Source: a virus
Taxonomy: Duplodnaviria; Heunggongvirae; Uroviricota; Caudoviricetes
Length of the DNA: 39,437 bases
IMG/VR virus record: IMGVR_UViG_2687453623_000006
Reading direction: 5' to 3' (one strand)
Below are positions 1,982-38,249 of this stretch, in pieces (position 1 is the first letter of the stretch; every line of letters begins with the position of its first letter). The notes beneath the pieces are model-generated. The model ran no database searches. It was not told the origin of the DNA and was given only the letters and a program-made list of their open reading frames with translations. Made by a program: the position numbers and the translations under genes.

Positions 1982-2380
1982 TTATCTGGATTTGTTAACG
2001 TCTTTCGTCTCCTCTGGCAGATCTTCATCAAACAACCTGCCCTGCATCCGATCCAGTTCTTCTTTTCTGACCCGCTTAACCACGCTGTAGACCCACTGAA
2101 GCGAAACACCAAACTTGCGGGCCAGTTCGTGGTGGTTGCGTCCGTTAAACTCCCTGAAGATTTCCCGGTCGCGCTGACTGACCTTCCATACCATGCCCAT
2201 CGGGAAATAAACGTTTTGCCCGCCCCAGACCTGCATCATTCGGTTCGCGACGGCCTGACCAATCTGGTCGGCAATTGCGGGCTCAATATCAATAATCTCG
2301 CGAACGGTCTCAGAGGTATGCTGTGCCAGCTCCACCAGGAGTTCCGGCCCTTTACTTCGAAACTGATTCAGGTCGCTCAT
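1982..2380 (-). CDS. mor: Mor/C-family transcriptional activator
   Basis: 132-aa ORF with C-terminal HTH (HHELARKFGVSLQWVYSVVKRVRKEE) and size typical of Mu Mor; last recognisable early gene. Confidence 0.75.
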   Translation of the reverse strand: MSDLNQFRSKGPELLVELAQHTSETVREIIDIEPAIADQIGQAVANRMMQVWGGQNVYFPMGMVWKVSQRDREIFREFNGRNHHELARKFGVSLQWVYSVVKRVRKEELDRMQGRLFDEDLPEETKDVNKSR

Positions 2381-2804: not shown

Positions 2805-3009
2805 CGTTGCTCCTTTTACCTGCGCCACCGATATAATCGACATATAAAGGAAGCGCCACAGGCCAGCACAGGAACATCACCGACCAGCTAATCCAGTAGC
2901 CAGCACCACTGTAACGTGAATAAAACCCTGAACGGCGGTGCAGTTCAGCAGTACACCAACCGACAAAACAATACCAGAACAGGGCACATACAACAGATTC
3001 AGCCGTCAT
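2794..3009 (-). CDS. small hydrophobic protein (about 71 aa), hypothetical
   Basis: Internal start of ORF 2794..3165 (MTAESVVCALFWYCFVGW...) gives a tightly packed small gene with two hydrophobic segments. Confidence 0.3.
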   Translation of the reverse strand: MTAESVVCALFWYCFVGWCTAELHRRSGFYSRYSGAGYWISWSVMFLCWPVALPLYVDYIGGAGKRSNDDD

Positions 3010-3229
3010 TCTGAATATCCCCCCAACTGATATGAATATTACGGGCAGCAATGACAGGGTCGTTATTCCACCATGCACCTGACATGTATTTTTCAACCTG
3101 TTCGCGTCCGGCAATAACACCAATTGTGATCCCCGGCCTGACGTTCTTAAAAAAGGCGCGGGCAAAAAGGTATCTGGCAGATATTCGGCAGGCTTTTAAT
3201 TTCCGGCTTTTACCTGATAGCGTAATCAT
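2999..3229 (-). CDS. hypothetical protein (76 aa)
   Basis: ORF packed between the DUF2786-like gene and the small membrane ORF in the early operon; no recognisable motif. Confidence 0.3.
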   Translation of the reverse strand: MITLSGKSRKLKACRISARYLFARAFFKNVRPGITIGVIAGREQVEKYMSGAWWNNDPVIAARNIHISWGDIQNDG

Positions 3230-3909
3230 CTGGCCTCCAGTTTCTGTTGTTCCTGCCCACTGACCGGGCGGTGCAGTCTGACGTTCTGCCCTTCAAGAAA
3301 CCCCGCATAGCGCGAGGCGTCGCCATTGCGGCTTCTTCCCGGTTTACGCGCCCTGGTGGTTTGCGTCTGCGGGTATTTATGTTCCAGCCACTGCTGCATC
3401 AGTTCACGTTCGTCATCGGTCAGGGCGAAGGACTGTATTTCACTGATAACGGCCAGCACCCAGCCTTCAGCAAACTGGTCACCACGGCTGGTACGGGTGG
3501 CAGTTTTTATTCTTTTGTTCTGTGCGCTGATATATTGCTGACGCGCCTTTTTCAGCTGGCGGGCCAGCACTTCCCAGGTGTACGCAGCCAGTGCAGCCCG
3601 TTCCCGGTTGCCGTAGAACCCCACACCCGGATATGTGCCGGGGTGAATGATGGAGTTAACACCAAATGCCTCGCGGATGATGTTCATCAGGCCCAGCATG
3701 TAGCGCGGTGGACGGAGGCTGCCTGTCGGCCAGTAGTGACTGATGGTTTCATCAATATCACTCATGGCGATGTCGGAATGTGTGATGCCGTGAACATCCA
3801 TCAGTTTACGGGCACGGCGCAGTGCCAGAGCGGCCTCGTGAGGGTTGCCGGATGCGGCCAGCGCCAGCAACTTTTTCAGTTTCTCAATGTGTTTATCCTG
3901 GTCTGTCAT
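3226..3909 (-). CDS. DUF2786-like phage protein
   Basis: 227 aa; N-terminal IEKLKKLLALAASGNPHEAALALRRARKLM is the characteristic DUF2786 motif; start overlaps the upstream stop. Confidence 0.55.
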   Translation of the reverse strand: MTDQDKHIEKLKKLLALAASGNPHEAALALRRARKLMDVHGITHSDIAMSDIDETISHYWPTGSLRPPRYMLGLMNIIREAFGVNSIIHPGTYPGVGFYGNRERAALAAYTWEVLARQLKKARQQYISAQNKRIKTATRTSRGDQFAEGWVLAVISEIQSFALTDDERELMQQWLEHKYPQTQTTRARKPGRSRNGDASRYAGFLEGQNVRLHRPVSGQEQQKLEAR

Positions 3910-4211
3910 TGTTCAGTATCTCCGGTGTACATGACGCCCAGCCGTGCGGCAAGGCGTTCCAGTTTTTTCTGTTTGTGGAAGTCAATCAGCCGGTCCATTC
4001 CCTGAAGGCGCAGCTGCTCTGTCATGATTTCCACGTCTGCCAGCTCTGCCGCGAGGTCACTTTCGCTGCCCTGTCCGTTCAGGTTGCGGGCGGCACTGGC
4101 CGCCAGTTCAGCGGCCTCTTCTGTCAGTTTCAGGGCCTGTGCGTCCGGCCCGAAACGCTGCAGGGCCAGACGGTAGAGGGCGGTGCGGGTGAGTTCGGTG
4201 TTCCGTGTCAT
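3906..4211 (-). CDS. hypothetical protein, possible MazG-like all-alpha NTP pyrophosphohydrolase domain
   Basis: 101 aa; acidic helical motifs LTEEAAELAASAARNL and SDLAAELADVEIMTEQL resemble the EExxE/ExxD metal-binding helices of MazG/HisE-type domains; weak. Confidence 0.4.
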   Translation of the reverse strand: MTRNTELTRTALYRLALQRFGPDAQALKLTEEAAELAASAARNLNGQGSESDLAAELADVEIMTEQLRLQGMDRLIDFHKQKKLERLAARLGVMYTGDTEQ

Positions 4212-4220
4212 GCCGCGCCC

Positions 4221-4493
4221 TCAGTGTTTCCGGTCGACGGTGATGTGCAGGCCGCCTTCTGCAGTGGTTTCCATCCGGTACGGCACCTCATGCTCTGCCG
4301 TGTGGGTGAGTGTGTTCATCAGTACCTGCAGGGCAGCCTCCTTTCCGTTGGTCGCCACAATGGCCTGTGTGGCCATGCTGATTAGCGCCGTCAGGACGTG
4401 CTTCACATCGGTGAGGTCGCGGCATTCACACTCGTTGACATAGTGTTCAACAAGGGTTCGGGTGCGCTGTCGTGCTTCCTGTGGGGTAATCAT
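4221..4493 (-). CDS. hypothetical early protein (90 aa)
   Basis: ORF in the co-directional early gene string; start overlaps the upstream stop (ATGA-type coupling). Confidence 0.4.
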   Translation of the reverse strand: MITPQEARQRTRTLVEHYVNECECRDLTDVKHVLTALISMATQAIVATNGKEAALQVLMNTLTHTAEHEVPYRMETTAEGGLHITVDRKH

Positions 4494-4684
4494 TGCGCGT
4501 CCTCCCTGTCAGGGCGGGAGAATTCCATGACGGGCACGTCCGCCGAAAAATGCTGGCTGCAGTACGGGCAGACCAGGGTGACACGTACTGCAGGTATGTG
4601 ATACTTACCGGACATCACGGCGATGGCGCTGTGAAAACGCAGGGCTGTTATATCCCTCTCGCACTGAATACATTTAAATATCAT
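4490..4684 (-). CDS. small zinc-ribbon-like protein (64 aa)
   Basis: Two Cys pairs, CIQC and CPYC, spaced about 33 residues apart; GAGGAG upstream of the start. Confidence 0.4.
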   Translation of the reverse strand: MIFKCIQCERDITALRFHSAIAVMSGKYHIPAVRVTLVCPYCSQHFSADVPVMEFSRPDREDAQ

Positions 4685-4781
4685 AATTTAATTCTCCTCT
4701 GTTTCCGGCGTGCAGAAGCCCACGGCGCTGACGCCGGAATAAAAAAGAAAATGTTTTTATTAAATAATTAACGTGGTGTGT

Positions 4782-5312
4782 TTACTGCACATCCTGCTCA
4801 AAAGGAATTATTGAAAAATCCTCAATGTCGCTTTTAATGGAAATACCGGGAATATTTTTCACGGCCTCTTTTTCATTCAGAATGGCATCTTTATTTATTT
4901 CCTCCTTTACACGAATAAAGCGCTCAAGCCCCAGACGTCTCAGCAGTTCAATGACATTATCCGCCCCGCGAATGCTGACTGACGGCGGACGGTTTCGCCA
5001 CTGCACCTCGCCGGTGGTGAGGTTAGCGAACTTCACCTTCCCGTTGCCGGTCAGTTCATCACGGTGCGCCTCACACCATGTCTGGATACCGGACTGCAGT
5101 TCGGCCATGCGTTTTTTCAGGCTCTCGGTGAGCGGGGCATAACGTGCAGTGATGTCGCCAATGGTGTCATTCATTTCTGTTTCAGCCCTGACCAGTTCAC
5201 GTTGCGCGTCACCAAGCAGTCTGATTCCCTCAATGACCTCTTCGCGTGTCCCCGGCACCCAGAGTGCTGCTGCGGCTTTGATACGTTTTGCCCCTTTTGT
5301 ACTTTTTGCCAT
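4782..5312 (-). CDS. gam: Gam-like host-nuclease inhibitor (Mu Gam / Ku-like DNA-end binding)
   Basis: 176 aa; MAKSTKGAKRIKAAAA..., ETEMNDTI, WCEAHRDELT, RPPSVSIRG and C-terminal IEDFSIIPFEQ closely match Mu Gam. Confidence 0.8.
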   Translation of the reverse strand: MAKSTKGAKRIKAAAALWVPGTREEVIEGIRLLGDAQRELVRAETEMNDTIGDITARYAPLTESLKKRMAELQSGIQTWCEAHRDELTGNGKVKFANLTTGEVQWRNRPPSVSIRGADNVIELLRRLGLERFIRVKEEINKDAILNEKEAVKNIPGISIKSDIEDFSIIPFEQDVQ

Positions 5313-23759: not shown

Positions 23760-24010
23760 TGAAAGAATACCGCTATTCCGGCCCGGCCAGCGGCGTCACG
23801 CTGTCGGACGGAACCGAAATCCTGCTCTGGCCGGGGAAGACGGTTTCCCTGCCGGAGGAGCATGACTACGTGAAGGTACTGGTGGCGCTGAAACATCTGA
23901 CGCCGGTACCTGAAGAGACTAAACCCGCCGGCACACCGGCTGTGCAGTCACCAAAGCGCAGAAGCAGCAGTGACAGCGAAGTGAAAACGGAGGACACCCA
24001 TGGCAGCTAA
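23756..24010 (+). CDS. small hypothetical protein preceding tail sheath (Mu gp38-like)
   Basis: 84 aa; translational coupling on both sides. Confidence 0.4.
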   Translation: MMKEYRYSGPASGVTLSDGTEILLWPGKTVSLPEEHDYVKVLVALKHLTPVPEETKPAGTPAVQSPKRRSSSDSEVKTEDTHGS

Positions 24011-25427
24011 CTATCTGCATGGTCCCGAAACCATTGAGGTGGAAAACGGTGCCCGCCCGGTTAAAACGGTGAAATCTGCCGTTATTGGCCTGATTGGTAC
24101 CGCCCCGATGGGGGATGTCAATACGCTGGTACAGTGCCTGTCTGAGAAAGACGCAGCGGCATTTGGCAGCCAGTTCACCGGCTTTACCATTCCGCAGGCG
24201 CTGGATGCGATTTATGACCATGGTGCAGGCACCGTTCTGGTCATTAACGTCCTCGACCCGGCGAAACATAAAACGGCGATCGAGGATGAGGTGGTTACCT
24301 TTGACAAATCGACAGGGCAGGCCAGACTGGCGCATCCGGTTGTCGCTAATGTGGTGGTGAAAAACAGTGAAGGCAGCACCACCCACACGGCGAACACGGA
24401 CTACCGTGTTGATGCGCAGGCGGGTGTGCTCACGAACCTGGGCAAGGCTATTGAGGCCGGTGGCAGCGTGAAGGTGAGCTATGAGTACGCGGACCCGTCG
24501 AAGGTGACTGCGGCGGACATCATCGGCGGGGTGAACAGCGCCGGAAACCGAACCGGCATGAAGCTGCTTAACGACAGCTTCAACCTGTACGGCTATTTCG
24601 CCAAAATTCTGATTGCGCCGGTGTTCTGCACCCAGAAGAGTGTCGCAGTTGAGCTTATCGCCATGGCAGAGAAGCTGGGCGCGGTAACCTACATTGATGC
24701 GCCTGTCGGTACCACCTTTGCACAGGCTCTGGCAGGTCGTGGCCCGGAAGGCACCATCAACTTCAATACCAGCTCCGACCGCGTCCGTCTGTGCTATCCG
24801 CATGTGAAGGTATATGACCCGGTGACAAACACAGAGCGTCTGGAGCCGCTCAGCCAGCGTGCAGCAGGTCTGCGTGCCAGAGTCGATCTGGACAAGGGCT
24901 ACTGGTGGTCATCCTCCAATCAGGAGATTCTGGGGATCACCGGCGTGGAGCGCCAGCTGTCCGCGATGATTGATGACCCGCAGAGTGAGGTGAACCTGCT
25001 TAACGAACAGGGGATCACCACGGTATTCAGCAGTTACGGCAGCGGCCTTCGTCTGTGGGGTAACCGGACGGCAGCATGGCCAACGGTCACCCATATGCGT
25101 AACTTTGAGAACGTTCGCCGCACCGGTGATGTGATCAACGAGTCCATTCGTTATTTCAGCCAGCAGTACATCGACATGCCGATTACTCAGGCGCTGATTG
25201 ATGCACTGACGGAGTCGGTCAACGCCTACGGTCGCAAAATGACTGGTGATGGTGCGGTACTGGGCTTCCGTTGCTGGTTTGATCCGGCCCGCAATCCGGA
25301 GACGGAGCTGGCCGCCGGGCACCTGTTGCTGAGCTACAAATATACGCCACCACCGCCGCTGGAGCGACTGACGTTTGAGACTGAGATCACCTCGGAATAC
25401 CTGTTAACCCTGAAAGGGGGCAACTGA
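24000..25427 (+). CDS. contractile tail sheath protein (Mu L-like)
   Basis: 475 aa; immediately followed by tail tube gene. Confidence 0.8.
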   Translation: MAANYLHGPETIEVENGARPVKTVKSAVIGLIGTAPMGDVNTLVQCLSEKDAAAFGSQFTGFTIPQALDAIYDHGAGTVLVINVLDPAKHKTAIEDEVVTFDKSTGQARLAHPVVANVVVKNSEGSTTHTANTDYRVDAQAGVLTNLGKAIEAGGSVKVSYEYADPSKVTAADIIGGVNSAGNRTGMKLLNDSFNLYGYFAKILIAPVFCTQKSVAVELIAMAEKLGAVTYIDAPVGTTFAQALAGRGPEGTINFNTSSDRVRLCYPHVKVYDPVTNTERLEPLSQRAAGLRARVDLDKGYWWSSSNQEILGITGVERQLSAMIDDPQSEVNLLNEQGITTVFSSYGSGLRLWGNRTAAWPTVTHMRNFENVRRTGDVINESIRYFSQQYIDMPITQALIDALTESVNAYGRKMTGDGAVLGFRCWFDPARNPETELAAGHLLLSYKYTPPPPLERLTFETEITSEYLLTLKGGN

Positions 25428-25948
25428 TGTCAAAGATTGAGATAAACCGCATCACGAATGCCAACATCTATCTGGATGGTACTAACCTGCTGGGACGGGC
25501 TGAGGAAGTCAAACTCCCCGATGTCTCCATGATTATGCAGGAACACAAGGCGCTGGGGATGGTGGGTAAGGTGGAACTCCCGGCTGGTTTTGACAAGCTG
25601 GAAGGCGAAATCAAATGGAACAGCTTTTACCGCGATGCGATGCTGTCTGCCGCGAACCCGTACAGGTCGCTGGCACTGCAGTGTCGTTCCAGCGTCCAGC
25701 GCTACAGCTCGCAGGGGCTGATTGACGAAATCCCGCTGGTCACCTTCCTGACGATTATGTTCAAGAAGAACCCGCTGGGGACGTTCAAACAGCACGAGAA
25801 CGCCGAGTTCTCCAGTAGCTTCACCTGCACGTATATCAGACAGGTACTGGATGGTGAAGAGCTGCTGCAACTGGACTATCTGGCCAACATCTTCCGGGTC
25901 GGCGGTGTTGATCAACTGACTGACTACCGTATCAATATCGGGGGCTGA
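25427..25948 (+). CDS. tail tube protein (Mu M-like)
   Basis: 173 aa; position after sheath; ATG overlaps sheath stop. Confidence 0.75.
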   Translation: MSKIEINRITNANIYLDGTNLLGRAEEVKLPDVSMIMQEHKALGMVGKVELPAGFDKLEGEIKWNSFYRDAMLSAANPYRSLALQCRSSVQRYSSQGLIDEIPLVTFLTIMFKKNPLGTFKQHENAEFSSSFTCTYIRQVLDGEELLQLDYLANIFRVGGVDQLTDYRINIGG

Positions 25949-26329: not shown

Positions 26330-26665
26330 ATGTCACAGACCCCATCCGATACTTTTAAATTGTCTTATCCCTTCACCACTGCTGCAGGCACCAGAATTGA
26401 GCTGGTTGAACTGAAACGCCTGACGGTAAAAGACCTGAAGCAGGTGCGCAAAATCAGCAAAAACCCGGCAGACTGGGACGAACCGCTGATTGCCCGCAGT
26501 ACTGGTCTTCTCCCGGAAGATCTCGACAATATGGATCTGGCTGATTACCTGCAGTTACAGAAACGATTTCAGCTCATCACGGGGATGGGTGAGAGCAACC
26601 AGGGCGCTGACGCAGGCGCAGGGGCTGCTGGCGAGATGGTTCCGGTTTCAGCCGGGGGAGATTGA
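26330..26665 (+). CDS. tail assembly chaperone (short form)
   Basis: 111 aa acidic protein upstream of the tape measure gene. Confidence 0.55.
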   Translation: MSQTPSDTFKLSYPFTTAAGTRIELVELKRLTVKDLKQVRKISKNPADWDEPLIARSTGLLPEDLDNMDLADYLQLQKRFQLITGMGESNQGADAGAGAAGEMVPVSAGGD

Positions 26666-26822: not shown

Positions 26823-29800
26823 ATGTCGGGACAGTTTTCAGTCGGCGTTGTTATCGGCGGGATGATTGGCAGCACATTCCGTTCTGCAATGAGCGGTACC
26901 CGCCGTGCGCTTGATTCCCTGAGCGATACCTCACGCCGCCTGCAGGAACGTCAGAACGCTTTAACCCGTGCAACAGAACGTTATGGTCAACTGGGTTCTT
27001 CCCGGATGCAGCATCTCAACAGCGAGCTGCTGCGGGTAAGCCGCACCATGGAGCAAATTGAGCGCCAGCAGCGCCGTCTGTCAGCGGCATCCGCTACCAG
27101 TGATGCGCTGAAAGCTAACCGCATGGCGCTGTATGGTCAGGGGATTGAAGCGTATGGCATGGCACAGACTGTTTATCATACGGTTTCCCCTGCCGTTCAG
27201 CAGTCCATGTCTTTTCAGGACAAAATGATTGATATGTCGATCACCGCAAAATATGACAATAAAACGCGGGATGCACTTGCCGGACAGATAAAAGGCTGGG
27301 CGCTTAAATACAATCAGTATCAGGATGAGCTGCAGGAGGCGGTGGGTTCACTCATCAGCGACAATATTGATAATGTGTCAGATATCGGTTTTCTGATGCC
27401 GGATATTGCCCGCGCGGCAACGGCAACACGCACGTCTGCTCAGGACTGGGCAAAAGTGGCCGCAGTCTGGCAAAACTCCCTGAAAGGTGCGGCCAGAGAT
27501 TTTGGTGCCGTTCAGAATATTATGGCTTATGCCGGTGACCAGGGGTCATTTGAAATCCCGGATCAGGTCAAGTGGATGCAGTCCCTGGCCCCAATGATGG
27601 CGGGTCTTGCCAGTGGAAAAGAGGCTGTTGCTGAAATCGGGGCCAGTCTCCAGATAGCAAAAATCGGTGCAGGTTCCACCGACGAAGCAGCCAATAATTT
27701 TAAAAACTTTCTTACCAAAATTTTTGCCCGCGATACTCAGAAACAGTTTGCTGATCTGGGTATTGATTTGCAGGGATCTATTGCGAGTTATAAAGCTGCG
27801 GGGATCTCTCCGATTGAAGGGATGTTGAGTGTTATAGAACGTTACCTCAATGCCAAAAGCCCCGAAGCGCTGGCCGGCTTCAAATCAGCCATGAAAATAA
27901 AGAATGATACGGCAAGAGATGAGGCACTTCAGGCTCTGGCGAAAAACTTTGGTCTGGGCGATATGTTCGCGGATATGCAGGTCATGGCATTTATCCGCCC
28001 GATGCTGGCCAACATGGACAGATATCGAGAGATCCGTGCCGGTGCTCTCAGGGCTGCGGATAACGATTTGCTTGCCAGTGCTTATGATCAGCGGCTGAAA
28101 TCTCCCCTTGAAGCCACTAAAACACTTATGGTCAGCAGTCGCGATCTGGCAATTACGCTGGGCGATCAATTAGCTCCATCTTTTATTTCTCTGACTCAGG
28201 AACTGCTCCCACTCATTCAGGGGACAAAACACTGGGTAGCGACTCACCCGCAATTTGTCAGTGGGGCTTTTAAGCTCATCAGTGCGCTCCTTGCGATTAA
28301 GATAGCGACTGTTGGTCTCAAACTGGGGCTGAATCTCCTTATTTCCCCCTTTGTGAACGTCTGGAAAACTACTGTTTTACTCCGGACCAACTGGCATCGA
28401 CTGACTACCGCACTCGGAGAAGGTGGCAAATTACGCTGGCTTGTCACTGGATTCAGCCGACTGACCAGCGGAGGACTGAAACTCAGCAAAGTTCTGGCGG
28501 GCAGCCTCGTTCGCGGTTTTATGAGCGCTGCACGTGCCGTTCTCTGGATTGGGCGAGCGCTGATGATGAATCCCATCGGTCTCGTTATCACCGCTGTCGC
28601 GACAGCAGCTTACCTTATCTACCGCAACTGGGGGGCTGTCAGTGGTTGGTTTAAACAGCGCTGGGCTGACATTCAGGAAGCCTTTAACGGCGGCATTGTG
28701 GGAATTGGTAAGTTGCTGATTAACTGGTCGCCGGCAGGCCTGCTCTATAAAGCCTTTGCGGCTGCGCTGAAATATTTCGGCGTTGCTCTGCCGGCAAAGT
28801 TCACCGACTTCGGTGGCCATCTTATCGACGGTCTGATTAACGGTATCAAAAGCAAATGGGGGTCGCTCAAATCCAGTGTAACCGGAATGGGTGACAGCAT
28901 CAGTAGCTGGTTTAAACAGCGCTGGGCTGACATTCAGGAAGCCTTTAACGGCGGCATTGTGGGAATTGGTAAGTTGCTGATTAACTGGTCGCCGGCAGGC
29001 CTGCTCTATAAAGCCTTTGCGGCTGCGCTGAAATATTTCGGCGTTGCTCTGCCGGCAAAGTTCACCGACTTCGGTGGCCATCTTATCGACGGTCTGATTA
29101 ACGGTATCAAAAACAAATGGGGGTCGCTCAAATCCAGTGTAACCGGAATGGGTGACAGCATCAGTAGCTGGTTTAAACAGTGCTGGGCTGACATTCAGGA
29201 AGCCTTTAACGGCGGTATCGCGGGAACTGGTAAGCTGCTGATTAACTGGTCGCCGGCAGGTCTGCTCTATAAAGCCTTTGCAGCTGCGCTGAAATATCTT
29301 GGTGTTGATCTGCCGGCAAAGTTCACCGACTTCGGTGGCCATCTTGTCGACGGTCTGATTAACGGTATCAAAAACAAATGGGAGTCGCTCAAATCCAGTG
29401 TAACCGGAATGGGTGACAGCATCAGTGGCTGGTTCAGCGAAAAGCTGGGCATTCATTCGCCGAGCCGCGTGTTTATGGGCTTTGGTGACAATATCGCGCA
29501 GGGGGCCGCCATTGGCCTGCAGCGGACCACTCCGCTTGCAGCTCTGGCCGGGCAGCGAATGGCCAGTGAACTGCTCCCCAGAATGCCCGTGAGCATTCAG
29601 GGGCCAGAAATACGGGATAACACTTCAGGTGTTCGCTTCAGTATGCCGTTGCCCGATATCAATGGGTTTATGTCGTCTGCTAAAAATGCGATCGGAGCCG
29701 TAATCAATAGTTTGTCTTCCATGCCCGTTATTCCGCTCTCCACCCGGGCATCGATTTTACCAGGGCAACGTCTGGCAAATGAGATGACACCGGATGTTCC

Positions 29801-30035
29801 CCGTATCCCCTCGCCTGAAATCCTGGCTGCCGGATATTCAGGCCGTGGTGCAGCTGCAACCGGCGGTGGAACGTCTGGTGGTATCCAGGTCAGCTTTAAT
29901 CCTCAGTTTTTCCTCAATGGCAGGGAAACCACAGCGCCTGCAGGACTGACTGGTGCCCTGAATATGAGTCTGCATGAGCTGGAAAAAATGCTGGAGCGTC
30001 TGCTGGCTCAGAAACAACGTAAGGAGTACCGCTGA
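26823..30035 (+). CDS. tail tape measure protein
   Basis: 1070 aa, largest ORF, located between chaperone and baseplate genes; contains internal tandem repeats. Confidence 0.8.
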   Translation: MSGQFSVGVVIGGMIGSTFRSAMSGTRRALDSLSDTSRRLQERQNALTRATERYGQLGSSRMQHLNSELLRVSRTMEQIERQQRRLSAASATSDALKANRMALYGQGIEAYGMAQTVYHTVSPAVQQSMSFQDKMIDMSITAKYDNKTRDALAGQIKGWALKYNQYQDELQEAVGSLISDNIDNVSDIGFLMPDIARAATATRTSAQDWAKVAAVWQNSLKGAARDFGAVQNIMAYAGDQGSFEIPDQVKWMQSLAPMMAGLASGKEAVAEIGASLQIAKIGAGSTDEAANNFKNFLTKIFARDTQKQFADLGIDLQGSIASYKAAGISPIEGMLSVIERYLNAKSPEALAGFKSAMKIKNDTARDEALQALAKNFGLGDMFADMQVMAFIRPMLANMDRYREIRAGALRAADNDLLASAYDQRLKSPLEATKTLMVSSRDLAITLGDQLAPSFISLTQELLPLIQGTKHWVATHPQFVSGAFKLISALLAIKIATVGLKLGLNLLISPFVNVWKTTVLLRTNWHRLTTALGEGGKLRWLVTGFSRLTSGGLKLSKVLAGSLVRGFMSAARAVLWIGRALMMNPIGLVITAVATAAYLIYRNWGAVSGWFKQRWADIQEAFNGGIVGIGKLLINWSPAGLLYKAFAAALKYFGVALPAKFTDFGGHLIDGLINGIKSKWGSLKSSVTGMGDSISSWFKQRWADIQEAFNGGIVGIGKLLINWSPAGLLYKAFAAALKYFGVALPAKFTDFGGHLIDGLINGIKNKWGSLKSSVTGMGDSISSWFKQCWADIQEAFNGGIAGTGKLLINWSPAGLLYKAFAAALKYLGVDLPAKFTDFGGHLVDGLINGIKNKWESLKSSVTGMGDSISGWFSEKLGIHSPSRVFMGFGDNIAQGAAIGLQRTTPLAALAGQRMASELLPRMPVSIQGPEIRDNTSGVRFSMPLPDINGFMSSAKNAIGAVINSLSSMPVIPLSTRASILPGQRLANEMTPDVPRIPSPEILAAGYSGRGAAATGGGTSGGIQVSFNPQFFLNGRETTAPAGLTGALNMSLHELEKMLERLLAQKQRKEYR
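28647..29429 (+). repeat. three in-frame tandem copies of a 261-bp (87-aa) unit inside the tape measure gene
   Basis: Unit beginning TGGTTTAAACAGCGCTGGGCTGACATTCAGGAAGCC recurs at 28647, 28908 and 29169; encodes SWFKQRWADIQEAFNGG...MGDSIS three times; partial fourth copy diverges at 29430. Confidence 0.85.
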
Positions 30036-30919
30036 TGTTTGCCGTACTGGGTGATATTGAGTTTGAGCTGATTACCTACTGGGACGGCTTCGAGGCCACG
30101 TTCGGCGTCGATTATGCGGAGCATGCCCGCATCGGGGGTAAGCCTGGCCTGCAGTTCGTCGGCGACAGGCTGGACGAAATCCAGATAACTCTGGTTTTCC
30201 ATCAGCATTATTGTGTACCCGATGTGGAGCTGGCGAGACTGCGAACAGCCATGAAAGCCCATCAGGCACTGGCGCTGGTCTTCGGCAACGGTGACTATCG
30301 CGGCTGGTTCGTGATTACCGATGTGACTGCAACCAGCGAGCAGACTGACAGTACCGGCAACGTGCTGGCTGTCAGTGCCACCGTGTCTCTCCGGGAATAC
30401 ACCGGTGACCCGAAAAATCCTCTGCAACCACCGGCAATACGCACGAAGCTCCCGGGTGTCGGGGCGGTCTCCGGTGCCATTCCTTCACCTTCCGGGGTGG
30501 CGCAGTTCATCCGCAACGGCGTCAACTATGCGAAACAGGCGCAGTCTGTACTCCAGACCACTATCAGCGCCGTTCGGGTGACACAGAAAATGAAGGATAA
30601 CCCCGTTGTCGCACTGACCCGTGTGCCGGGGCTGATGAGCGGACTGGGTAATATCTCCGGGGCTCTGGGGAAAAGTGTTCCGGCGTTTAACGCACTCTCT
30701 GAATCCATGCCCGATGCCATCAGTCTGGCCAGAACAGCCAGCGAAGCAGCCACGTATGTACAGCAGGCACAGTCTGCGCTGAGTGGTGTGGACAAAAGAA
30801 ATATTGCAGGTGCTCTGGATACCGTTTCCGGGCAGCTTAACGCCGTCGGAACAGCATTCAACCGCATGTCTCCGGGATTAAGTGCAATGGCCGCCAGAAT
30901 ACTGACGAGGAGTGTGTGA
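30035..30919 (+). CDS. tail protein, P2 gpU-like N-terminal domain (Mu N position)
   Basis: N-terminus MFAVLGDIEFELITYWDGF...GKPGLQFVGD...ITL resembles gpU-family tail proteins; ATG overlaps tape measure stop. Confidence 0.55.
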   Translation: MFAVLGDIEFELITYWDGFEATFGVDYAEHARIGGKPGLQFVGDRLDEIQITLVFHQHYCVPDVELARLRTAMKAHQALALVFGNGDYRGWFVITDVTATSEQTDSTGNVLAVSATVSLREYTGDPKNPLQPPAIRTKLPGVGAVSGAIPSPSGVAQFIRNGVNYAKQAQSVLQTTISAVRVTQKMKDNPVVALTRVPGLMSGLGNISGALGKSVPAFNALSESMPDAISLARTASEAATYVQQAQSALSGVDKRNIAGALDTVSGQLNAVGTAFNRMSPGLSAMAARILTRSV

Positions 30920-31131
30920 TGTTTCTTGAACATGTTACCCGTGACGGAGAGCGCTGGGATTCGCTGGCATGGCAGTACTACGGTGACCCGCTGGGCTATC
31001 CCCGGATTATTGCCGCCAATCCGCACGTGGCCATCACGCCGGTGCTGCCCTCCGGGCTGTTGTTACTGATCCCGGTGATTGAGGCTGAAGAAGCCCGTAC
31101 AGAAGAGGATATTGCCCCATGGCTGAGATAA
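30916..31131 (+). CDS. tail protein X-like (P2 gpX family)
   Basis: 71 aa; motif RWDSLAWQYYGD typical of gpX. Confidence 0.6.
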   Translation: MMFLEHVTRDGERWDSLAWQYYGDPLGYPRIIAANPHVAITPVLPSGLLLLIPVIEAEEARTEEDIAPWLR

Positions 31132-32291
31132 ACAGCACTGCGCAAGTCACATCAGCGTTAACCGGCGTCAGCGATGTGCTGACACCGGTGTTCACTCTGT
31201 GGTATCTGCAGAAAAACATCACCTCTGATATCGCGCCTTATGTCACCCGTGTGACCTGGAGCGATAACATCAAAAATGAGTCCGATACCATTGAGGTGGA
31301 GCTGGACGACACCGATGGCCGCTGGCTGGATAAGTGGTATCCGGGCAAGGGTGACACGCTGACGCTGAAAATGGGCTATCAGGACGAGAAGCTGCTGTCC
31401 TGCGGTACGTTCTCTATAGACGAGATCGAAGTGAGTTCGCCCGCTTCCGTTGTTTCTATCCGTGGGGTGGCCACCTCGGTTAACAGTGCCCTGCGGACTA
31501 AAACCAGTCGTGGTTTTGAGAACACCACGCTGGCAGCTGTTGCGGGGCGGATTGCCAGAAAGCACCGGCTGAAACTGGTGGGCAGCATTGAGTCCATCAG
31601 AATCGACCGGGTGACCCAGTATGCTGAAACCGACGTGGGTTTTCTGCGCCGGCTGGCCAGCGAGTATGGTTATGCAGTGAAAGTGGTCAGTGACCAGCTG
31701 ATTTTTTCTCATCTGGCCACACTGCGCAGTCAGGAGCCGGTCAGGCAGTTAAAACCGCAGGATGTGGCCCGCTTTTCCCTGCGTGACACCATCAACCGGG
31801 TCTATAAATCTGCAAAGGTAAAACACCAGAAAAGCAGCAGTAAAAAACTGATCGTCTACGAAGCTGATGGTGGTACCCGTGAAAGCGACAAAAAGCTCAA
31901 AGGTGGTAAGGTTACCAGCGCTGACTCACTTAAAGTTAACAGCCGCGTCAGCGACCCGGACAGTGCCCGGATTAAAGCGGATTCAGCACTGGCCAGACAT
32001 AACGAATACCAGCAGAACGGCTCCCTGACGCTGACGGGAACACCTCAACTGACAGCAGGCAACAAAATTGAACTGGTGGGTTTTGGGCAGTTATCCGGGC
32101 CATGGCTCATAACCACTGCCCGCCATGCGTTTGACCGTAACAGCGGCTACACCACAGAGCTGGAAGTGGCACGGGGGCCGATCACACAGGGCAAGGCGAA
32201 GAAAGGTAAAAAAATCGGCAAAACCCGGATGCTGACCATCTATAAACCGGACGGCAGCACGTCCACAGTAATAAGAGAGAAGAAAAAATGA
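31119..32291 (+). CDS. baseplate hub / late control D-like protein (P2 gpD, Mu P position)
   Basis: 390 aa; synteny between gpX-like and gpV-like genes. Confidence 0.7.
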   Translation: MAEINSTAQVTSALTGVSDVLTPVFTLWYLQKNITSDIAPYVTRVTWSDNIKNESDTIEVELDDTDGRWLDKWYPGKGDTLTLKMGYQDEKLLSCGTFSIDEIEVSSPASVVSIRGVATSVNSALRTKTSRGFENTTLAAVAGRIARKHRLKLVGSIESIRIDRVTQYAETDVGFLRRLASEYGYAVKVVSDQLIFSHLATLRSQEPVRQLKPQDVARFSLRDTINRVYKSAKVKHQKSSSKKLIVYEADGGTRESDKKLKGGKVTSADSLKVNSRVSDPDSARIKADSALARHNEYQQNGSLTLTGTPQLTAGNKIELVGFGQLSGPWLITTARHAFDRNSGYTTELEVARGPITQGKAKKGKKIGKTRMLTIYKPDGSTSTVIREKKK

Positions 32292-34380: not shown

Positions 34381-34951
34381 GCCATTACAACTCCCGCCAC
34401 CGCTTGAGGGTGATATCAGTCTCAGGACGCTGGGAAGACTGGCAGGGCGGCTGGATAACATCGACCTGAGCGTACTGATGGTCTTTCTCGTCGATATCGT
34501 CGACAGTTCTGCGCTGCCATGGCTGGGCGAGCAGTTCTCACTGTCTGGCGATGGCTGGGAGCTGGCGGAATCGGACGATGTTCGCCGCATGCTTATAAAA
34601 GCAGCCATCGAACTACACCGGTATAAAGGGACGCCGTGGTCAATCCGGGAAGTTATCCGCCGTTTTGGCTTTGGTGAAGTGGATCTGATTGAAGGCACAG
34701 GTCGTCTCAGTTACGACGGCAATCGCAGCTATAACGGACTGTTTGTTCATGGAGATGCAGCCGCCTGGGCGGTTTATCGCGTTATTCTGAAACAGCCCAT
34801 TACTAACGATCAGGCCGCGATGCTGCGTCAGACGCTCGCTGCATTTGCACCGGCCCGCTGCCATCTGGCCAGCCTGGAGTATCAGTCTGTGGCCATTCGC
34901 TATAACAATACCGCCATCCATGATGGCAGTTATAACCACGGGAGCAGTTGA
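34373..34951 (+). CDS. tail protein I-like (P2 gpI family)
   Basis: Track ORF from GTG 34361; preferred ATG 34373 overlapping the J stop; precedes tail fibre. Confidence 0.6.
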   Translation: MTEPLQLPPPLEGDISLRTLGRLAGRLDNIDLSVLMVFLVDIVDSSALPWLGEQFSLSGDGWELAESDDVRRMLIKAAIELHRYKGTPWSIREVIRRFGFGEVDLIEGTGRLSYDGNRSYNGLFVHGDAAAWAVYRVILKQPITNDQAAMLRQTLAAFAPARCHLASLEYQSVAIRYNNTAIHDGSYNHGSS

Positions 34952-37146
34952 TTATGGGAAACCTGAATGAAACAGAAAAGTGGGAAGAAAAAATCTATCA
35001 ACTGGAGACATCAGATCCGGTTCTGGGTGGTGCTGACGGGATATCAAATCGAGCCCCCCGGCAACTGGCAAACAGGACGAAATGGCTGAAGAAAAAAACG
35101 GAGGAAGCCGCACAGTCACTGGCTGAACACGTACGTTCCCGTAACCACCCGGACGCGACACTGACAGCTAAGGGGTTCACCCAACTGAGCAGTGCCACCA
35201 ACAGCACCTCTGAAACGCTGGCCGCCACACCAAAAGCCGTCAAGGCTGCATACGACCTTGCAGCCGGCAAGGCACCCGTCAGTCACACTCACCCGTGGAG
35301 TCAGATAACGGGAGTGCCTGCTGCCTCGCTGACGGCAAAAGGCACCGTACAGCTGAGCAGTGCCACGGACAGTCAATCAGAAACTGAGGCTGCCACGCCG
35401 AAGGCTGTGAAAATCGCGTATGATCTGGCCCGGGGAAAATACACAGCCCAGGATGCAACAACGACCCGTAAAGGGATCGTACAACTGAGCAGTGCCACCA
35501 ACAGCACCTCTGAAACGCTGGCCGCCACACCAAAGGCCGTCAAGGCTGCATATGACCTAGCTGCCGGCAAGGCCCCCGTCAGCCACACTCACCCGTGGAG
35601 TCAGATAACGGGAGTGCCTGCTGCCTCGCTGACGGCAAAAGGCACCGTACAACTGAGCAGCGCCACGGACAGTCAATCAGAAACTGAGGCTGCCACGCCG
35701 AAGGCTGTGAAAATCGCGTATGATCTGGCCCGGGGAAAATACACAGCCCAGGATGCAACAACGACCCGTAAAGGGATCGTACAACTGAGCAGTGCCACCA
35801 ACAGCACCTCTGAAACGCTGGCCGCCACACCAAAGGCCGTCAAGGCTGCATATGACCTGGCTGCCGGCAAGGCCCCCGTCAGCCACACTCACCCGTGGAG
35901 TCAGATAACGGGAGTGCCTGCTGCCTCGCTGACGGCAAAAGGCACCGTACAACTGAGCAGCGCCACGGACAGTCAATCAGAAACTGAGGCTGCCACGCCG
36001 AAGGCTGTGAAAATCGCGTATGATCTGGCCCGGGGAAAATACACAGCCCAGGATGCAACAACGACCCGTAAAGGGATCGTACAACTGAGCAGTGCCACCA
36101 ACAGCACCTCTGAAACGCTGGCCGCCACACCAAAGGCCGTCAAGGCTGCATATGACCTGGCTGCCGGCAAGGCCCCCGTCAGCCACACTCACCCGTGGAG
36201 TCAGATAACGGGAGTGCCTGCTGCCTCGCTGACGGCAAAAGGCACCGTACAACTGAGCAGCGCCACGGACAGTCAATCAGAAACTGAGGCTGCCACGCCG
36301 AAGGCGGTCAAGGCTGCATACGACCTTGCAGCCGGCAAGGCCCCCGTCAGCCACACTCACCCGTGGAGTCAGATAACGGGAGTGCCTGCTGCCTCGCTGA
36401 CGGCAAAAGGCACCATACAATTGAGCAGTGCCATCAACAGCACGTCTGAAATACTGGCCGCCACACCGAAAGCGGTCAAGGCTGCATACGATCTGGCAAA
36501 CGGAAAACAACCGGCAGATGCCACGCTCACTGCTCTGGCAGGACTTGCCACTGCAGCAGATCGGTTGCCTTATTTTACCGGAGCAGACCGCGCAGCGCTG
36601 GCAACCCTTACAGCTATTGGTCGCGCTATTATCGCTAAGGGCAGTATAAAAGATGTCCTCAATTACCTTGGTTTGGGGGAAGGCTCTGCATTGCCTGTTG
36701 GTGTGCCTGTTCCGTGGCCCACCGCCACACCGCCAGCAGGCTGGTTACAGTGCAACGGAGCTACGTTCACCAAAGAACAATATCCTGTTCTGGCCAGAGT
36801 CTACCCGACCCTCCGTCTTCCCGATTTACGCGGTGAGTTTATCCGTGGATGGGACGACGGGCGCAAGATTGACGAGGGGCGTAAGTTGCTTTCATGGCAG
36901 AAAGGTACACTGGTCGGCGGTCATGACGATAACGATTCTTCGCTGGATATCTCGTACATGAGTAACGGAAATAATATTGACTATGGCGGCGATAAGGTGT
37001 TTGCGGGGAATTACCGTAGCGATTATTTGTGGTACGCAATTCTGGGTGGAACAAACAGTCGCGCAAAAGCCGAATTAAACGGAGCATTCTTTAACATAAC
37101 CCGCCCCCGCAATATCGCGTTTAACTATATCGTGAGGGCGGCGTGA
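34948..37146 (+). CDS. tail fibre protein (constant N-terminus, repeat-rich shaft, exchangeable C-terminal cassette)
   Basis: 732 aa; repeated LSSAT(N/D)S(T/Q)SET(L/E)AATPKAVK(A/I)AYDLA motifs; C-terminal region homologous to two inverted downstream cassettes. Confidence 0.8.
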   Translation: MIMGNLNETEKWEEKIYQLETSDPVLGGADGISNRAPRQLANRTKWLKKKTEEAAQSLAEHVRSRNHPDATLTAKGFTQLSSATNSTSETLAATPKAVKAAYDLAAGKAPVSHTHPWSQITGVPAASLTAKGTVQLSSATDSQSETEAATPKAVKIAYDLARGKYTAQDATTTRKGIVQLSSATNSTSETLAATPKAVKAAYDLAAGKAPVSHTHPWSQITGVPAASLTAKGTVQLSSATDSQSETEAATPKAVKIAYDLARGKYTAQDATTTRKGIVQLSSATNSTSETLAATPKAVKAAYDLAAGKAPVSHTHPWSQITGVPAASLTAKGTVQLSSATDSQSETEAATPKAVKIAYDLARGKYTAQDATTTRKGIVQLSSATNSTSETLAATPKAVKAAYDLAAGKAPVSHTHPWSQITGVPAASLTAKGTVQLSSATDSQSETEAATPKAVKAAYDLAAGKAPVSHTHPWSQITGVPAASLTAKGTIQLSSAINSTSEILAATPKAVKAAYDLANGKQPADATLTALAGLATAADRLPYFTGADRAALATLTAIGRAIIAKGSIKDVLNYLGLGEGSALPVGVPVPWPTATPPAGWLQCNGATFTKEQYPVLARVYPTLRLPDLRGEFIRGWDDGRKIDEGRKLLSWQKGTLVGGHDDNDSSLDISYMSNGNNIDYGGDKVFAGNYRSDYLWYAILGGTNSRAKAELNGAFFNITRPRNIAFNYIVRAA
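35150..36520 (+). repeat. in-frame tandem array of near-identical 300-bp (100-aa) units in the tail-fibre shaft, about 4.5 copies
   Basis: CTGAGCAGTGCCACCAACAGCACCTCTGAAACGCTGGCC recurs at 35185, 35485, 35785 and 36085; identical antisense ORFs in the track at 300-bp offsets. Confidence 0.85.
36661..36867 (+). repeat. inversion-site homology block A inside the tail-fibre gene (gix-like crossover site at its 5' edge)
   Basis: About 200 bp nearly identical in inverted orientation to 38086..38290 and 38599..38811; 5' edge ACCTTGGTTTGGGGG resembles the Gin/Hin crossover core (AAACC-NN-GGTTT). Confidence 0.7.
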
Positions 37147-37152
37147 TACCGT

Positions 37153-37767
37153 TCAGCTGGCAAGTGCCAGTGGCGCTTCCGGCCAGCTGATTTCAGGTGC
37201 CGTGCTGATATCCAGTGCGTTCAGCTCGTCGATATAATCCAGCACGGCGTTCAGTTTTGCCGTTTCTTCTGGTGTCAGACTGCGACCAGCACGCAGTTTG
37301 AGGTTGATAAGATCGACGGACGCCATCGCCTGTTTCACCCGTTGCTGGCGTTGCTGTCTGGCAACCTCCAGTTCTGCGGCTCGCTGCCGTTCAGTATCGG
37401 TTACCCACGCCTCACCGTTCCAGGTATCCCATGGCGTGGCCGGCTGTTTTGTGGTGGTGTCCGCCGGGTAATCACCCGGTTGGGTAATCAGAACGGGGTT
37501 ACCGTTCTCCGTGCTGTATACCGTCTCGCCGCGGTGATCAGGCACATGCTCCCACCCGTTCAGCGTGGCAGTCCGGCAAACCACGTAACCCGAAATTGCC
37601 TCCGGCGGTGCATCGGCGCACGAATGTGCCGGAGTACCCACCCCAAGGGCGAGATACTCCACAGAGGATGAGGTGTATTCCCGGGTTTCCTCGTCATAGT
37701 GATATACAGTGATCTCGCCCGCTACAGTGGCGATACCGTTTTCATCCAGAACTGCAGTGTTACTCAT
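37153..37767 (-). CDS. tail fibre assembly chaperone (Mu U-like), in currently silent orientation
   Basis: 204 aa; directly downstream of the minus-strand cassette at 37767..38249 with overlapping stop/start. Confidence 0.7.
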   Translation of the reverse strand: MSNTAVLDENGIATVAGEITVYHYDEETREYTSSSVEYLALGVGTPAHSCADAPPEAISGYVVCRTATLNGWEHVPDHRGETVYSTENGNPVLITQPGDYPADTTTKQPATPWDTWNGEAWVTDTERQRAAELEVARQQRQQRVKQAMASVDLINLKLRAGRSLTPEETAKLNAVLDYIDELNALDISTAPEISWPEAPLALAS

Positions 37768-38249
37768 TAAACTGCCCTCACAATGTAATTAAGTGCAATG
37801 CTACGGGGTCTGACAGTGATACCCTTCGCATACCCGCTTCTGATAGAGGTCAGAATAGTAGCCTGCATACCATTGTCTGACATTGCCACGACAGGATCGC
37901 TGAATGTTGTCCCGTCCGGCATTTTAAAGCTGCCCTCACGAAGGTCTGTAATGGAATCTTCATTGTTGAATCCCATGCCGACTATCCCCGAGGTTCCCGT
38001 AGTGTCCTGGTTATAATAATCCAGCATTGCTGTTCTTAACAGCGTTGCCCCTTGTGCGGACAGCAACTTACGTCCTGTATCAACTTTGCGCCCGTCGTCC
38101 CATCCACGGATAAACTCACCGCGTAAATCGGGAAGACGGAGGGTCGGGTAGACTCTGGCCAGAACAGGATATTGTTCTTTTGTAAAGGCGCGCCCGTCGC
38201 ACTTTAACCAGCCTGCTGGCGGTGTGGCGGTGGGAAACGGAACAGGCAC
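37767..38249 (-). CDS. alternative tail-fibre C-terminal cassette B (currently unfused)
   Basis: N-terminal 60 aa PVPFPTATPPAGWLKCDGRAFTKEQYPVLARVYPTLRLPDLRGEFIRGWDDGRKVD nearly identical to the C-terminal region of the expressed fibre, then diverges. Confidence 0.7.
   Translation of the reverse strand: MPVPFPTATPPAGWLKCDGRAFTKEQYPVLARVYPTLRLPDLRGEFIRGWDDGRKVDTGRKLLSAQGATLLRTAMLDYYNQDTTGTSGIVGMGFNNEDSITDLREGSFKMPDGTTFSDPVVAMSDNGMQATILTSIRSGYAKGITVRPRSIALNYIVRAV

Follow-up and report, generated by a model that had tools for sequence, protein, structure and literature searches.

A copy-number-variable 261-bp segment in the tape measure gene of a BcepMu-like Escherichia coli prophage

The 39,437-nt IMG/VR record IMGVR_UViG_2687453623_000006, hereafter the window, carries a tape measure protein gene in which a segment of 87 codons stands three times in tandem. 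With a probability of roughly three in four, we read this array as a copy-number-variable tape measure segment that arose by an old duplication followed by recurrent unequal recombination, and that probably alters tail length unit by unit. The variation is real but ordinary for a phage; length change of tape measures by tandem units is already well known.

Array structure

The array is wholly contained in a plus-strand ORF of 1070 aa plus stop codon (26823-30035), and stop codons are absent from its units. Tandem Repeats Finder (TRF) delimits it at 28639-29434, with a period of 261, 3.0 copies (3.05), 96% matches, 0% indels and a score of 1466, and a gapless repeat finder returns 261-bp copies at 28639-28899, 28900-29160 (99%) and 29161-29421 (93%). 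Set to codon boundaries, the three units span 28638-28898, 28899-29159 and 29160-29420, each of 87 codons. The preliminary description of this DNA had reported three near-identical in-frame 261-bp copies of an 87-aa segment at 28647-29429, and both finders and the translation agree with it on unit length and copy number, its coordinates falling inside the array delimited here. Blocks of 261 bp flanking the array on either side gave no alignment with the units. Three blocks of this length at 93-99% identity make a chance origin impossible.

Divergence within the array is uneven, with 4 nt separating units 1 and 2, 14 nt units 2 and 3, and 18 nt units 1 and 3. Unit 1 (28638-28898, plus strand, aa 606-692) carries what we call the F-type (first) haplotype at 26 variable sites, along with two changes of its own, at unit nt 9 and 215. 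Unit 3 (29160-29420, plus strand, aa 780-866) is of the L type (last) and is identical to the last unit of three other alleles, L004, L005 and L008. By the variable-site table, unit 2 (28899-29159, plus strand) is a very recent chimera of the two: it has last-unit states over nt 1-9 (nt 1, 7 and 9) and first-unit states from nt 22 onward, and away from this junction it differs from unit 1 at 2 positions. Such a structure matches the middle unit expected from an unequal crossover in a two-unit allele. Immediately 3′ of unit 3, the translation continues with ISGWF (29421-29435, plus strand; the TRF array ends at 29434), the first five codons of a would-be fourth unit. Through this start, a short stretch of homology lies at the array's 3′ end.

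The tape measure gene and its tail module

The ORF had been called a tape measure gene from the letters alone, a call that family matches and gene neighbourhood both uphold. It matches Pfam PF10145 (PhageMin_Tail; 1.3e-20, 74.6 bits against a cutoff of 33.2, aa 159-340) and PHROG 28, 'tail length tape measure protein' (2.8e-135), as well as PHROG 5690, and RefSeq labels identical gene copies 'phage tail tape measure protein'. Its place in the gene order, after the tail tube and chaperone E/E' genes and before gpU/gpX/gpD, is the one expected in a tail module. Upstream on the same plus strand lie the tail sheath gene (24000-25427; PF04984/PF17482), the tail tube gene (25427-25948; PF04985) and tail assembly chaperone E (26330-26665; PF10109) with the overlapping E' frame (to 26747), the equivalents of chaperone E in relatives being labelled 'GpE family phage tail protein' in RefSeq. 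Downstream, also on the plus strand, are a gpU-like gene (30035-30919), a gpX-like gene (30919-31131) and a gpD-like hub gene (31119-32291), assigned by PF06995, PF05954 and the annotation of near-identical loci. Virion copy numbers of the sheath and tube proteins would track tape measure length.

Among its Mu-type genes, the prophage has Pfam matches to Portal_Mu (PF06074, 2.9e-90), to an AAA ATPase and to a transposase with an rve integrase core. With 97.9% identity in the tape measure gene, the closest deposited phage is Escherichia phage PhiKM, placed in Bcepmuvirus by its taxonomy line. Gene content and this similarity identify the element as a BcepMu-like transposable prophage of E. coli with a P2-type contractile tail. 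Other variable tail parts are present in it, namely a tail-fibre repeat (300 bp, in tandem) and an alternative fibre end that is inverted.

Directly 5′ of the array, the plus-strand interval 28251-28622 encodes a region with two hydrophobic, transmembrane-like segments (aa 477-510 and 572-600; Kyte-Doolittle scan, 19-residue window, mean >1.5). On the 3′ side follows the unique C-terminal part of the protein (29436-30035, plus strand), to which the PHROG tape measure families align and which holds a GIHSPSR motif at 29448-29468. A single-sequence AlphaFold2 model of aa 541-990 came out mostly helical with a mean pLDDT of 40.9, too poor for a fold search. We set aside a weak Protein Data Bank sequence match on the unit region (9m8o chain M, 'Gp14', E 0.0017), which shows only likeness to a common tape measure C-terminal motif.

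Unit number among genomes

The gene is found in 633 of 5426 complete E. coli genomes (~12%), the ST131 lineage included. A sample of 60 evenly spaced matches gave 59 informative genomes, with three units in 12 (~20%), two in 42 (~71%) and one in 5 (~8%). Units were called by span, 1601 for three and ~1340 for two (41 genomes); genome H98 was counted as two-unit despite a span of 1274, its two units being confirmed next to a 66-nt deletion upstream. The proteins fall into clusters of 1070, 983 and 896 aa, of which the two-unit one (P0025) comprises 1995 sequences. Counting copies in related prophages, the check that the preliminary description had proposed, was thereby carried out and turned up one-, two- and three-unit alleles.

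Only one to three units are confirmed; four are unconfirmed. A four-unit candidate, an IMG/VR locus with the order F-M-M-L (L014), is doubtful: an N and a scaffold join lie within its array and the two halves disagree at one site. A search of complete E. coli genomes with its four units plus right flank ranked only three-unit alleles at the top, each aligned in two pieces. Co-variation of unit number with tail-fibre repeat number is not supported, as KK19-02 and SF-173 have the same three-unit tape measure and different fibre lengths.

Beyond these alleles, a single unit prevails. In other genera (Pantoea, Mixta, Erwinia, Trabulsiella, Brenneria, Dickeya, Xenorhabdus and others) every relative has one unit, and the more distant E. 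coli relatives do too; their tape measures are ~800-830 aa long. Distant IMG/VR loci also have one unit, except for two, L039 and L085, where self-BLAST revealed larger, independent tandem duplications in the same tape measure region (564 nt and 705 nt, respectively; both missed by TRF, their periods being >500 nt). Counting the 87-aa unit, the family thus shows three or more independent duplications of this region, with periods of 87, 188 and 235 aa.

Tail length

A ruler rule of 0.15 nm per aa is used in PMC9928086 with reference to Mahony 2016 and Katsura & Hendrix 1984. Since the rule predicts ~13 nm for 87 residues, each unit probably adds about that much to the tail, or roughly three tail-tube rings (~3.3, at 40 Å per ring and 1.5 Å per aa), and tails of ~134, 147 and 160 nm would be predicted for one, two and three units. 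The preliminary description had expected a longer tail than in relatives with one copy; such a comparison is apt mostly against two-unit relatives, the commonest state, and less so against one-unit ones. Quantisation by tube rings was tried as an account of the duplicated lengths and dropped, the 87-, 188- and 235-aa periods giving ~3.3, 7.0 and 8.8 rings and no consistent integer pattern.

The unit adjoins the hydrophobic segments and is near the C-terminal end, which docks in the baseplate hub, so it might not extend along the tube lumen and could contribute less than 13 nm. Taken further, unit number could vary with no effect on tail length at all, either because the extra units are folded back or are placed in the hub-associated or membrane-active portion of the tape measure without lengthening the ruler, or because the prophage is defective and the variation is neutral recombination noise. 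We regard this as unlikely. It draws on the location of the unit, directly between two hydrophobic segments and the hub-proximal C-terminal region, on a structure model (pLDDT 41) that conveys only a helical tendency, and on one three-unit allele (L011) that is an incomplete pseudogene in RefSeq. The searched literature (PhiKM, Bcepmuvirus electron microscopy) returned no tail lengths or micrographs for this phage group, which likewise leaves room for it. However, no complete allele examined has lost the reading frame, and the near-identical PhiKM genome was deposited as a phage. Judging by substitution rates, both old units are maintained under purifying selection of a strength similar to that on the rest of the gene: dN/dS between the first and last unit is about 0.3 (0.28-0.32), and 0.275 elsewhere in the gene. 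Experimental precedent also stands against it, with in-frame tape measure indels leading to proportional change of the tail in all systems put to experiment (lambda, TP901-1 and T4; cited through PMC13585406 and PMC9928086). A probable effect on tail length is the reading we retain.

As to what such variation might serve, we can only speculate, and consider the following improbable: that selection tunes virion reach, through one to three (possibly four) tape measure units together with the 300-bp fibre repeat, against capsule or O-antigen depth, or that the unit is a periplasm-spanning module of the ejected tape measure, its number setting the length of the DNA conduit and not just that of the tail. 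The latter is conceivable because the unit comes right after the hydrophobic segments. Compatible with such readings are the three or more independent duplications of the region and the purifying selection on both old units.

Origin of the units

A near-isogenic comparison is with the two-unit allele L008 of strain AH21E028, which differs from the window at 2 of 2888 nt in the left flank and at none of 2930 nt in the right flank (2 nt in 5818), and whose units are unit 1 of the window, except at nt 215, and unit 3. A second three-unit allele, L004, has its breakpoint at unit nt 68-76 and sits on a flanking haplotype 69/1815 nt away from the window, 62 of these 69 sites lying within one 300-nt patch; its two-unit sibling L005 is only 6-7 nt apart from it in the left flank. 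The single unit of L003 is itself an F/L chimera, F-type to nt 102 and L-type from nt 123, and represents a contraction, and unit 1 of L002 carries a conversion patch at nt 57-76. Breakpoints consequently differ from allele to allele (nt 9-22 in the window, 68-76 in L004 and 102-123 in L003). At the protein level, the middle unit of every three-unit allele is L-type in its 5′ part and F-type in its 3′ part, in several breakpoint classes, and the 3′ part of each middle unit carries variants of its own first unit. The locus thus combines the hallmarks of a copy-number-variable repeat, i.e., different unit numbers on near-identical flanks and chimeric units with varying breakpoints. The recombinational length variation anticipated from the window alone is borne out by the one-, two- and three-unit alleles, with the chimeric units marking crossovers.

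Copy-number alleles on matched flanks, different breakpoints and a one-unit chimera together point to recurrent unequal homologous recombination. The ancestral gene had one 87-codon unit, flanked by the two hydrophobic segments on one side and by the conserved GIHSPSR region of the C terminus on the other. One unit is taken as ancestral because the relatives in other genera all have one and the outgroup units are no nearer to F than to L. This unit was duplicated long ago in the E. coli lineage, giving F and L, which have since diverged by ~7% under purifying selection; the duplication is old because the first and last units differ at 18/261 nt (~7%), with a dS of 0.13. Unequal homologous recombination, or slippage during replication, now acts on these 261-bp direct repeats. 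When L and F misalign, a crossover leaves a chimeric middle unit (5′ L, 3′ F) and so produces the three-unit allele of the window, and the reciprocal event gives the one-unit chimera (5′ F, 3′ L). L-type patches inside F units are taken to indicate gene conversion. As 261 is a multiple of three, all recombination products stay in frame. One expansion followed by gene conversion could in principle also yield different breakpoints; the paired flanking haplotypes argue against it, although 62 of the 69 sites that distinguish them are confined to one 300-nt patch. The array, its polymorphism, its history and the repeated events are thus shown by the sequences, and the step in tail length is a prediction of the ruler rule.

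A single recent triplication, in which one event made three copies that diverged slightly later, appears highly improbable on these grounds. It would account for three adjacent copies of equal length at 93-99% identity. It does not fit the strongly unequal divergence (4 vs 14-18 nt), the L/F chimerism of the middle unit, the majority state of two-unit alleles, or the fact that the last unit is identical to theirs and the first identical or nearly so to their first. Of the 'recent triplication' put forward in the preliminary description, recency holds for the middle unit, with its 2 differences from unit 1 outside the junction, and not for the first/last pair, which is old (dS 0.13) and shared with two-unit alleles.

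Programmed variation, by a site-specific recombinase or by contingency-locus switching of unit number at high frequency, we judge extremely improbable, although the prophage does have other variable tail parts in its tail-fibre repeat and inverted alternative fibre end. Breakpoints scattered over nt 9-22, 68-76 and 102-123 fit general homologous recombination and not a fixed site. In addition, a run of 30 successive genomes in the sample (H53-H82), which carry the ST131-type allele, share the same two-unit span and one bit score, which indicates that the array is stable on clonal timescales and not hypervariable; the frequent change of unit number within a clone that characterises contingency loci was not observed among them.

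An assembly artefact, that is, a repeat collapsed or expanded in one assembly, which the preliminary description had named as the finding that would overturn it, is virtually excluded by an identical 3213-nt gene (100%) that recurs in 28 or more complete E. coli genomes, assembled independently in unrelated projects, and by the substitutions distinguishing the three units, which exclude a simple read pile-up, even though short-read assemblies do break at the array (in PhiKM the gene bears the label 'disrupted by sequencing gap', contigs L026 and L027 terminate 34 codons into the first unit, L014 has its scaffold gap inside the array, and many proteins in the database are partial). Because the array is a reproducible short-read assembly breakpoint, unit numbers from draft genomes are not to be trusted.

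Implications

Recurrent unequal recombination at this array leaves the understanding of phage tails unchanged. Its value lies in a natural one-, two- and three-unit series in a contractile-tailed phage, two cases of it on near-identical backgrounds, which makes the ruler rule directly testable and could show how a non-integer increment of ~3.3 rings rounds off. Chimeric units also record single recombination events and are possible markers of prophage lineages.

Comparison with known systems

The tail module shares its gene order and Pfam families with the P2 gpT/BcepMu-type module (sheath FI, tube FII, chaperone E, PF10145, gpU, gpD). Relatives from other genera and more distant ones from E. 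coli have one unit and ~800-830 aa, whereas the present allele has three units and 1070 aa.

In lambda gpH, TP901-1 and T4 gp29, in-frame tape measure duplications and deletions lengthen or shorten the tail proportionally, at ~0.15 nm per residue, in work attributed to Katsura & Hendrix 1984, Mahony et al. 2016 and Abuladze et al. 1994 (cited through PMC9928086 and PMC13585406). Those variants were made in the laboratory and their tails measured, whereas here the alleles are natural.

That tape measures can owe part of their length to tandem repeats is known (PMC13585406, PMC3271669). A 2026 survey reports the majority of myovirus tape measures to be without one (PMC13585406). Our literature search (PhiKM, ST131 tape measure repeats) found no earlier description of the present array. 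It resembles the 11-residue tape measure repeats of mycobacteriophages (Belcaid, Bergeron & Poisson 2011, PMC3271669) in having in-frame tandem units whose number varies among related phages, and in both a history of duplication and loss can be read from substitutions. The mycobacteriophage repeats are of 11 aa and belong to non-contractile siphophages; here the unit is of 87 aa, in one to three copies, in a contractile-tailed Mu-like prophage.

Bacterial coding VNTRs, which change by unequal recombination or slippage, offer a second parallel, with perfect head-to-tail units, a unit length that is a multiple of three, crossover chimeras and alleles of both gain and loss. The present array differs from them in its long unit (261 bp), its low unit number and its stability in the sampled clonal ST131 genomes, and does not behave like a fast contingency locus.

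Tape Measure Gene and Element

The gene at 26823-30035 (+, 1070 aa) is indeed a tape measure gene, as first described, with family matches to Pfam PF10145 (1.3e-20) and PHROG 28 'tail length tape measure protein' (2.8e-135) and a place within a P2-type contractile tail module. It follows the genes for sheath (24000-25427), tube (25427-25948) and chaperone E (26330-26665); after it come gpU, gpX, gpD and then the baseplate genes V, W and J. The P2-type tail, together with a Mu-type portal, an rve-family transposase, an AAA ATPase and 97.9% identity of the tape measure gene to that of Escherichia phage PhiKM (the closest deposited phage, its record classified as Bcepmuvirus), identifies the element as a BcepMu-like transposable prophage of E. 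coli.

In relatives, an ORF overlapping the 3′ end of chaperone E and ending at 26747 is named 'GpE family phage tail protein'. Relative to E it is in the +1 frame, whereas tail-chaperone frameshifting normally uses -1; around the 3′ end of E the sequence is GCC GGG GGA GAT TGA, and no slip site was established.

Structure of the Array

Tandem Repeats Finder returned one array in the region (28639-29434; period 261, 3.0 copies, 96% matches, 0 indels, score 1466), and a gapless repeat finder placed the copies at 28639-28899, 28900-29160 (99%) and 29161-29421 (93%). In codon phase, units 1 to 3 (87 codons each, +) occupy 28638-28898, 28899-29159 and 29160-29420 within the tape measure ORF, so that both programs and the reading frame agree with the three in-frame 87-aa copies of the preliminary description. 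Given these copy match values and the fact that the flanking 261-nt blocks on both sides do not align with the units, a chance origin is impossible. There are 4 nt differences between units 1 and 2, 14 between 2 and 3 and 18 between 1 and 3. Two hydrophobic segments (aa 477-510 and 572-600) lie just before the first unit; the five codons directly after unit 3 (ISGWF) repeat the start of a unit, and the last full unit lies about 10 residues ahead of a conserved GIHSPSR motif. An antisense ORF of 341 aa (28431-29456, -) covers the entire array and is most likely spurious, kept open by repetition of a stop-free stretch.

An assembly artefact is ruled out, as at least 28 complete E. coli genomes, produced by unrelated projects, contain the entire 3213-nt gene in one aligned piece at 100.0% identity. 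The array is a known trap for short-read assembly: the PhiKM record gives the tape measure CDS in split form with the annotation 'coding region disrupted by sequencing gap', contigs L026 and L027 stop 34 codons into unit 1, the scaffold gap of the IMG/VR locus L014 falls within the array, and database proteins of this gene are often 'partial'. Since short-read assemblies break there, copy numbers from drafts need caution.

Copy Number in Relatives

The gene is carried by 633 of 5426 complete E. coli genomes. We sampled 60 evenly spaced hits from the ranking obtained with a 1601-nt query (array plus both flanks), 59 of which were informative, the remaining one being a partial match. Two units were present in 42 (span about 1340 nt in 41; the 1274 nt of H98, which was checked and is a two-unit allele, are due to a 66-nt deletion upstream), three in 12 (1601 nt) and one in five (1079 nt in one, the other four being more divergent relatives). 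Protein database lengths of 1070, 983 and 896 aa correspond to three, two and one units, and a single two-unit protein cluster represents 1995 member sequences. Two units are the common E. coli state and three a minority state. Every relative from another genus (Pantoea, Mixta, Erwinia, Trabulsiella, Intestinirhabdus, Brenneria, Dickeya, Xenorhabdus and others) has one unit, as do distant IMG/VR loci except L039 and L085, which harbor larger duplications; one unit is therefore the ancestral state.

Further length variants of the gene probably occur, since two-unit database proteins of 883 aa are not marked partial at source. Others have 922 aa, and one of two such proteins may be truncated, its contig also carrying a partial-labelled tape measure protein. 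E. coli S1-ZIM-01-A (L010, CDS 1074-3959) encodes a 961-aa, two-unit protein, its gene having lost 66 nt in frame ahead of the array, and the three-unit gene of E. coli Z0117EC0117 (L011, CDS 1074-3839) is annotated in RefSeq as an incomplete pseudogene without C-terminus. Tape measure genes at 96-99% identity on small, low-coverage contigs of Arthrobacter sp. GMC3 and Y81 (GTDB; L090, L110, L112) are almost certainly E. coli contamination.

An Old Duplication and a Recent Third Copy

Tabulation of 26 variable unit sites over alleles from complete genomes separates two distinct unit types, first (F) and last (L), differing at 18/261 nt; three other alleles (L004, L005 and L008) have a last unit identical to window unit 3. 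In two more distant E. coli relatives with 821-aa proteins (L006 and L007), the single unit is as far from F as from L (26-28 nt and 34-36 nt) and shares F and L states at diagnostic sites in about equal numbers; F and L are therefore products of one duplication after the split from these relatives. Between F and L, dS is 0.13 and dN/dS 0.28-0.32, close to the 0.275 of the gene's unique 5′ part compared between alleles, indicating that both types have long been under ordinary purifying selection.

Window unit 2 carries L-type bases at unit nt 1, 7 and 9 and F-type bases from nt 22 on; outside this junction it differs from unit 1 at two sites only (nt 9 and nt 215), both private to window unit 1. 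A two-unit copy whose L unit crosses over, out of register, with the F unit of a second such copy yields exactly this structure. The two-unit allele of AH21E028 (L008) matches the window with 2/2888 nt differences in the left flank and 0/2930 nt in the right; its first unit equals that of the window save for nt 215, and its second equals window unit 3. One recombination event separates the two alleles. The 'recent triplication' of the preliminary description thus holds for the third copy but not as a single event, the F/L duplication being old; the unit sequences point to a duplication long ago and a third copy gained recently and repeatedly.

Recurrence is argued for by the three-unit allele of Z0117EC0055 (L004), whose middle-unit breakpoint is at nt 68-76, whose flanking haplotype differs from the window at 69/1815 nt and whose nearest relative, 6 nt apart, is the two-unit L005: a different breakpoint, a different haplotype and a two-unit sibling indicate a second, independent gain. 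A single expansion followed by gene conversion is a less likely source of the differing breakpoints; in its favor, 62 of the 69 haplotype-separating differences in the gene's 5′ 1815 nt cluster within a single patch of 300 nt immediately 5′ of the array. This patch (28323-28637, nt 1500-1815 of the gene, the rest of which is nearly identical) looks like a recombination mosaic boundary adjoining the repeat. As to recurrent gain, protein-level comparison finds that in all three-unit alleles the middle unit starts as L-type and ends as F-type. Its end carries the same private variants as the first unit of that allele, and several of these alleles have a matching two-unit counterpart.

Loss occurs as well: the only unit of MLI121 (L003), on an L005-like haplotype, is F-type to nt 102 and L-type from nt 123, a chimera that marks a contraction. 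An L-type patch at nt 57-76 of the first unit of another allele (L002) indicates gene conversion. Because the breakpoints are scattered, general homologous recombination or slippage is favored over a site-specific mechanism. With one-, two- and three-unit alleles and chimeric units in relatives, the locus is prone to recombinational length variation, as had been proposed; it is not hypervariable, since 30 consecutive sampled genomes with an ST131-type allele (H53-H82) have an identical two-unit span and bit score.

Other Duplications in the Family

Two distant family members in IMG/VR have independent tandem duplications that include the unit: L039 (3020-4159; 564-nt period, 99.8% identity) and L085 (2950-4289; 705-nt period, 89.8% identity), both missed by Tandem Repeats Finder because their periods exceed 500 nt. 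L014 (IMGVR_UViG_2740892433_000005, 3316-5252) suggests a candidate four-unit allele in the apparent order F-M-M-L, M being a middle unit, with a scaffold join and N inside the array. Its left part holds flank, F, M, M and a partial unit, and its right part the last 8 nt of the left flank followed by F, M, M and L; the halves disagree at one site and the join is unreliable. No four-unit allele was found among the top-ranked complete E. coli genomes.

Many relatives among L044-L089 and L094-L102 are 70-89% identical to the window protein over aa 471-692 (hydrophobic region plus unit) and just 19-35% over aa 121-470. The tape measure family is mosaic.

Predicted Tail Length

In lambda, TP901-1 and T4, in-frame tape measure changes alter tail length proportionally, by about 0.15 nm per residue (PMC9928086; PMC13585406), a value taken here via PMC9928086, where Mahony 2016 and Katsura & Hendrix 1984 are cited for it. 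Each unit would then add a predicted 13 nm, giving tails of about 134, 147 and 160 nm for proteins of 896, 983 and 1070 aa. The tube-ring rise is about 4 nm, so one unit would correspond to roughly 3.3 rings. The longer tail originally predicted, and an effect of unit number in general, is plausible. Micrographs for this phage group were not found in the literature searched, and the quality of the structure model of the unit region is too low to tell an extended unit from a folded one.

Tail Fibre Region

The tail fibre gene (34948-37146, +) contains a tandem repeat of its own, larger than that of the tape measure gene (35182-36305 and 36070-36498; period 300 nt, 3.7 copies, 98% match). Nine matches to Pfam 'Phage tail fibre repeat' occur in its protein along with a Collar domain. 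The gene's span differs widely in related E. coli prophages, being exactly 300 nt shorter in one 99.6%-identical relative and about 650-1650 nt in others, so fibre length too varies by repeat number, and does so independently of tape measure unit number. The fibre gene is immediately followed, on the other strand, by a tail fibre assembly gene (Caudo_TAP; 37153-37767, -) and an ORF starting with a Collar domain (37767-38249, -). By gene layout, 37153-38249 (-) looks like a candidate alternative fibre C-terminus in inverted orientation, resembling the invertible host-range segments of Mu and P1.

Comparison with Known Tape Measure Repeats

Our literature search found no paper on this array. According to a 2026 survey, tandem repeats account for part of the length variation among tape measures, but those of myoviruses are mostly without them (PMC13585406). 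The main value of the array is a ready-made allelic series for testing, in a contractile tail, the rule that tape measure length sets tail length. In mycobacteriophages, tape measure genes have variable numbers of tandem units whose history of duplication and loss has been reconstructed (PMC3271669), and the E. coli prophage array is alike in both respects: variable tandem units, with traceable gain and loss.
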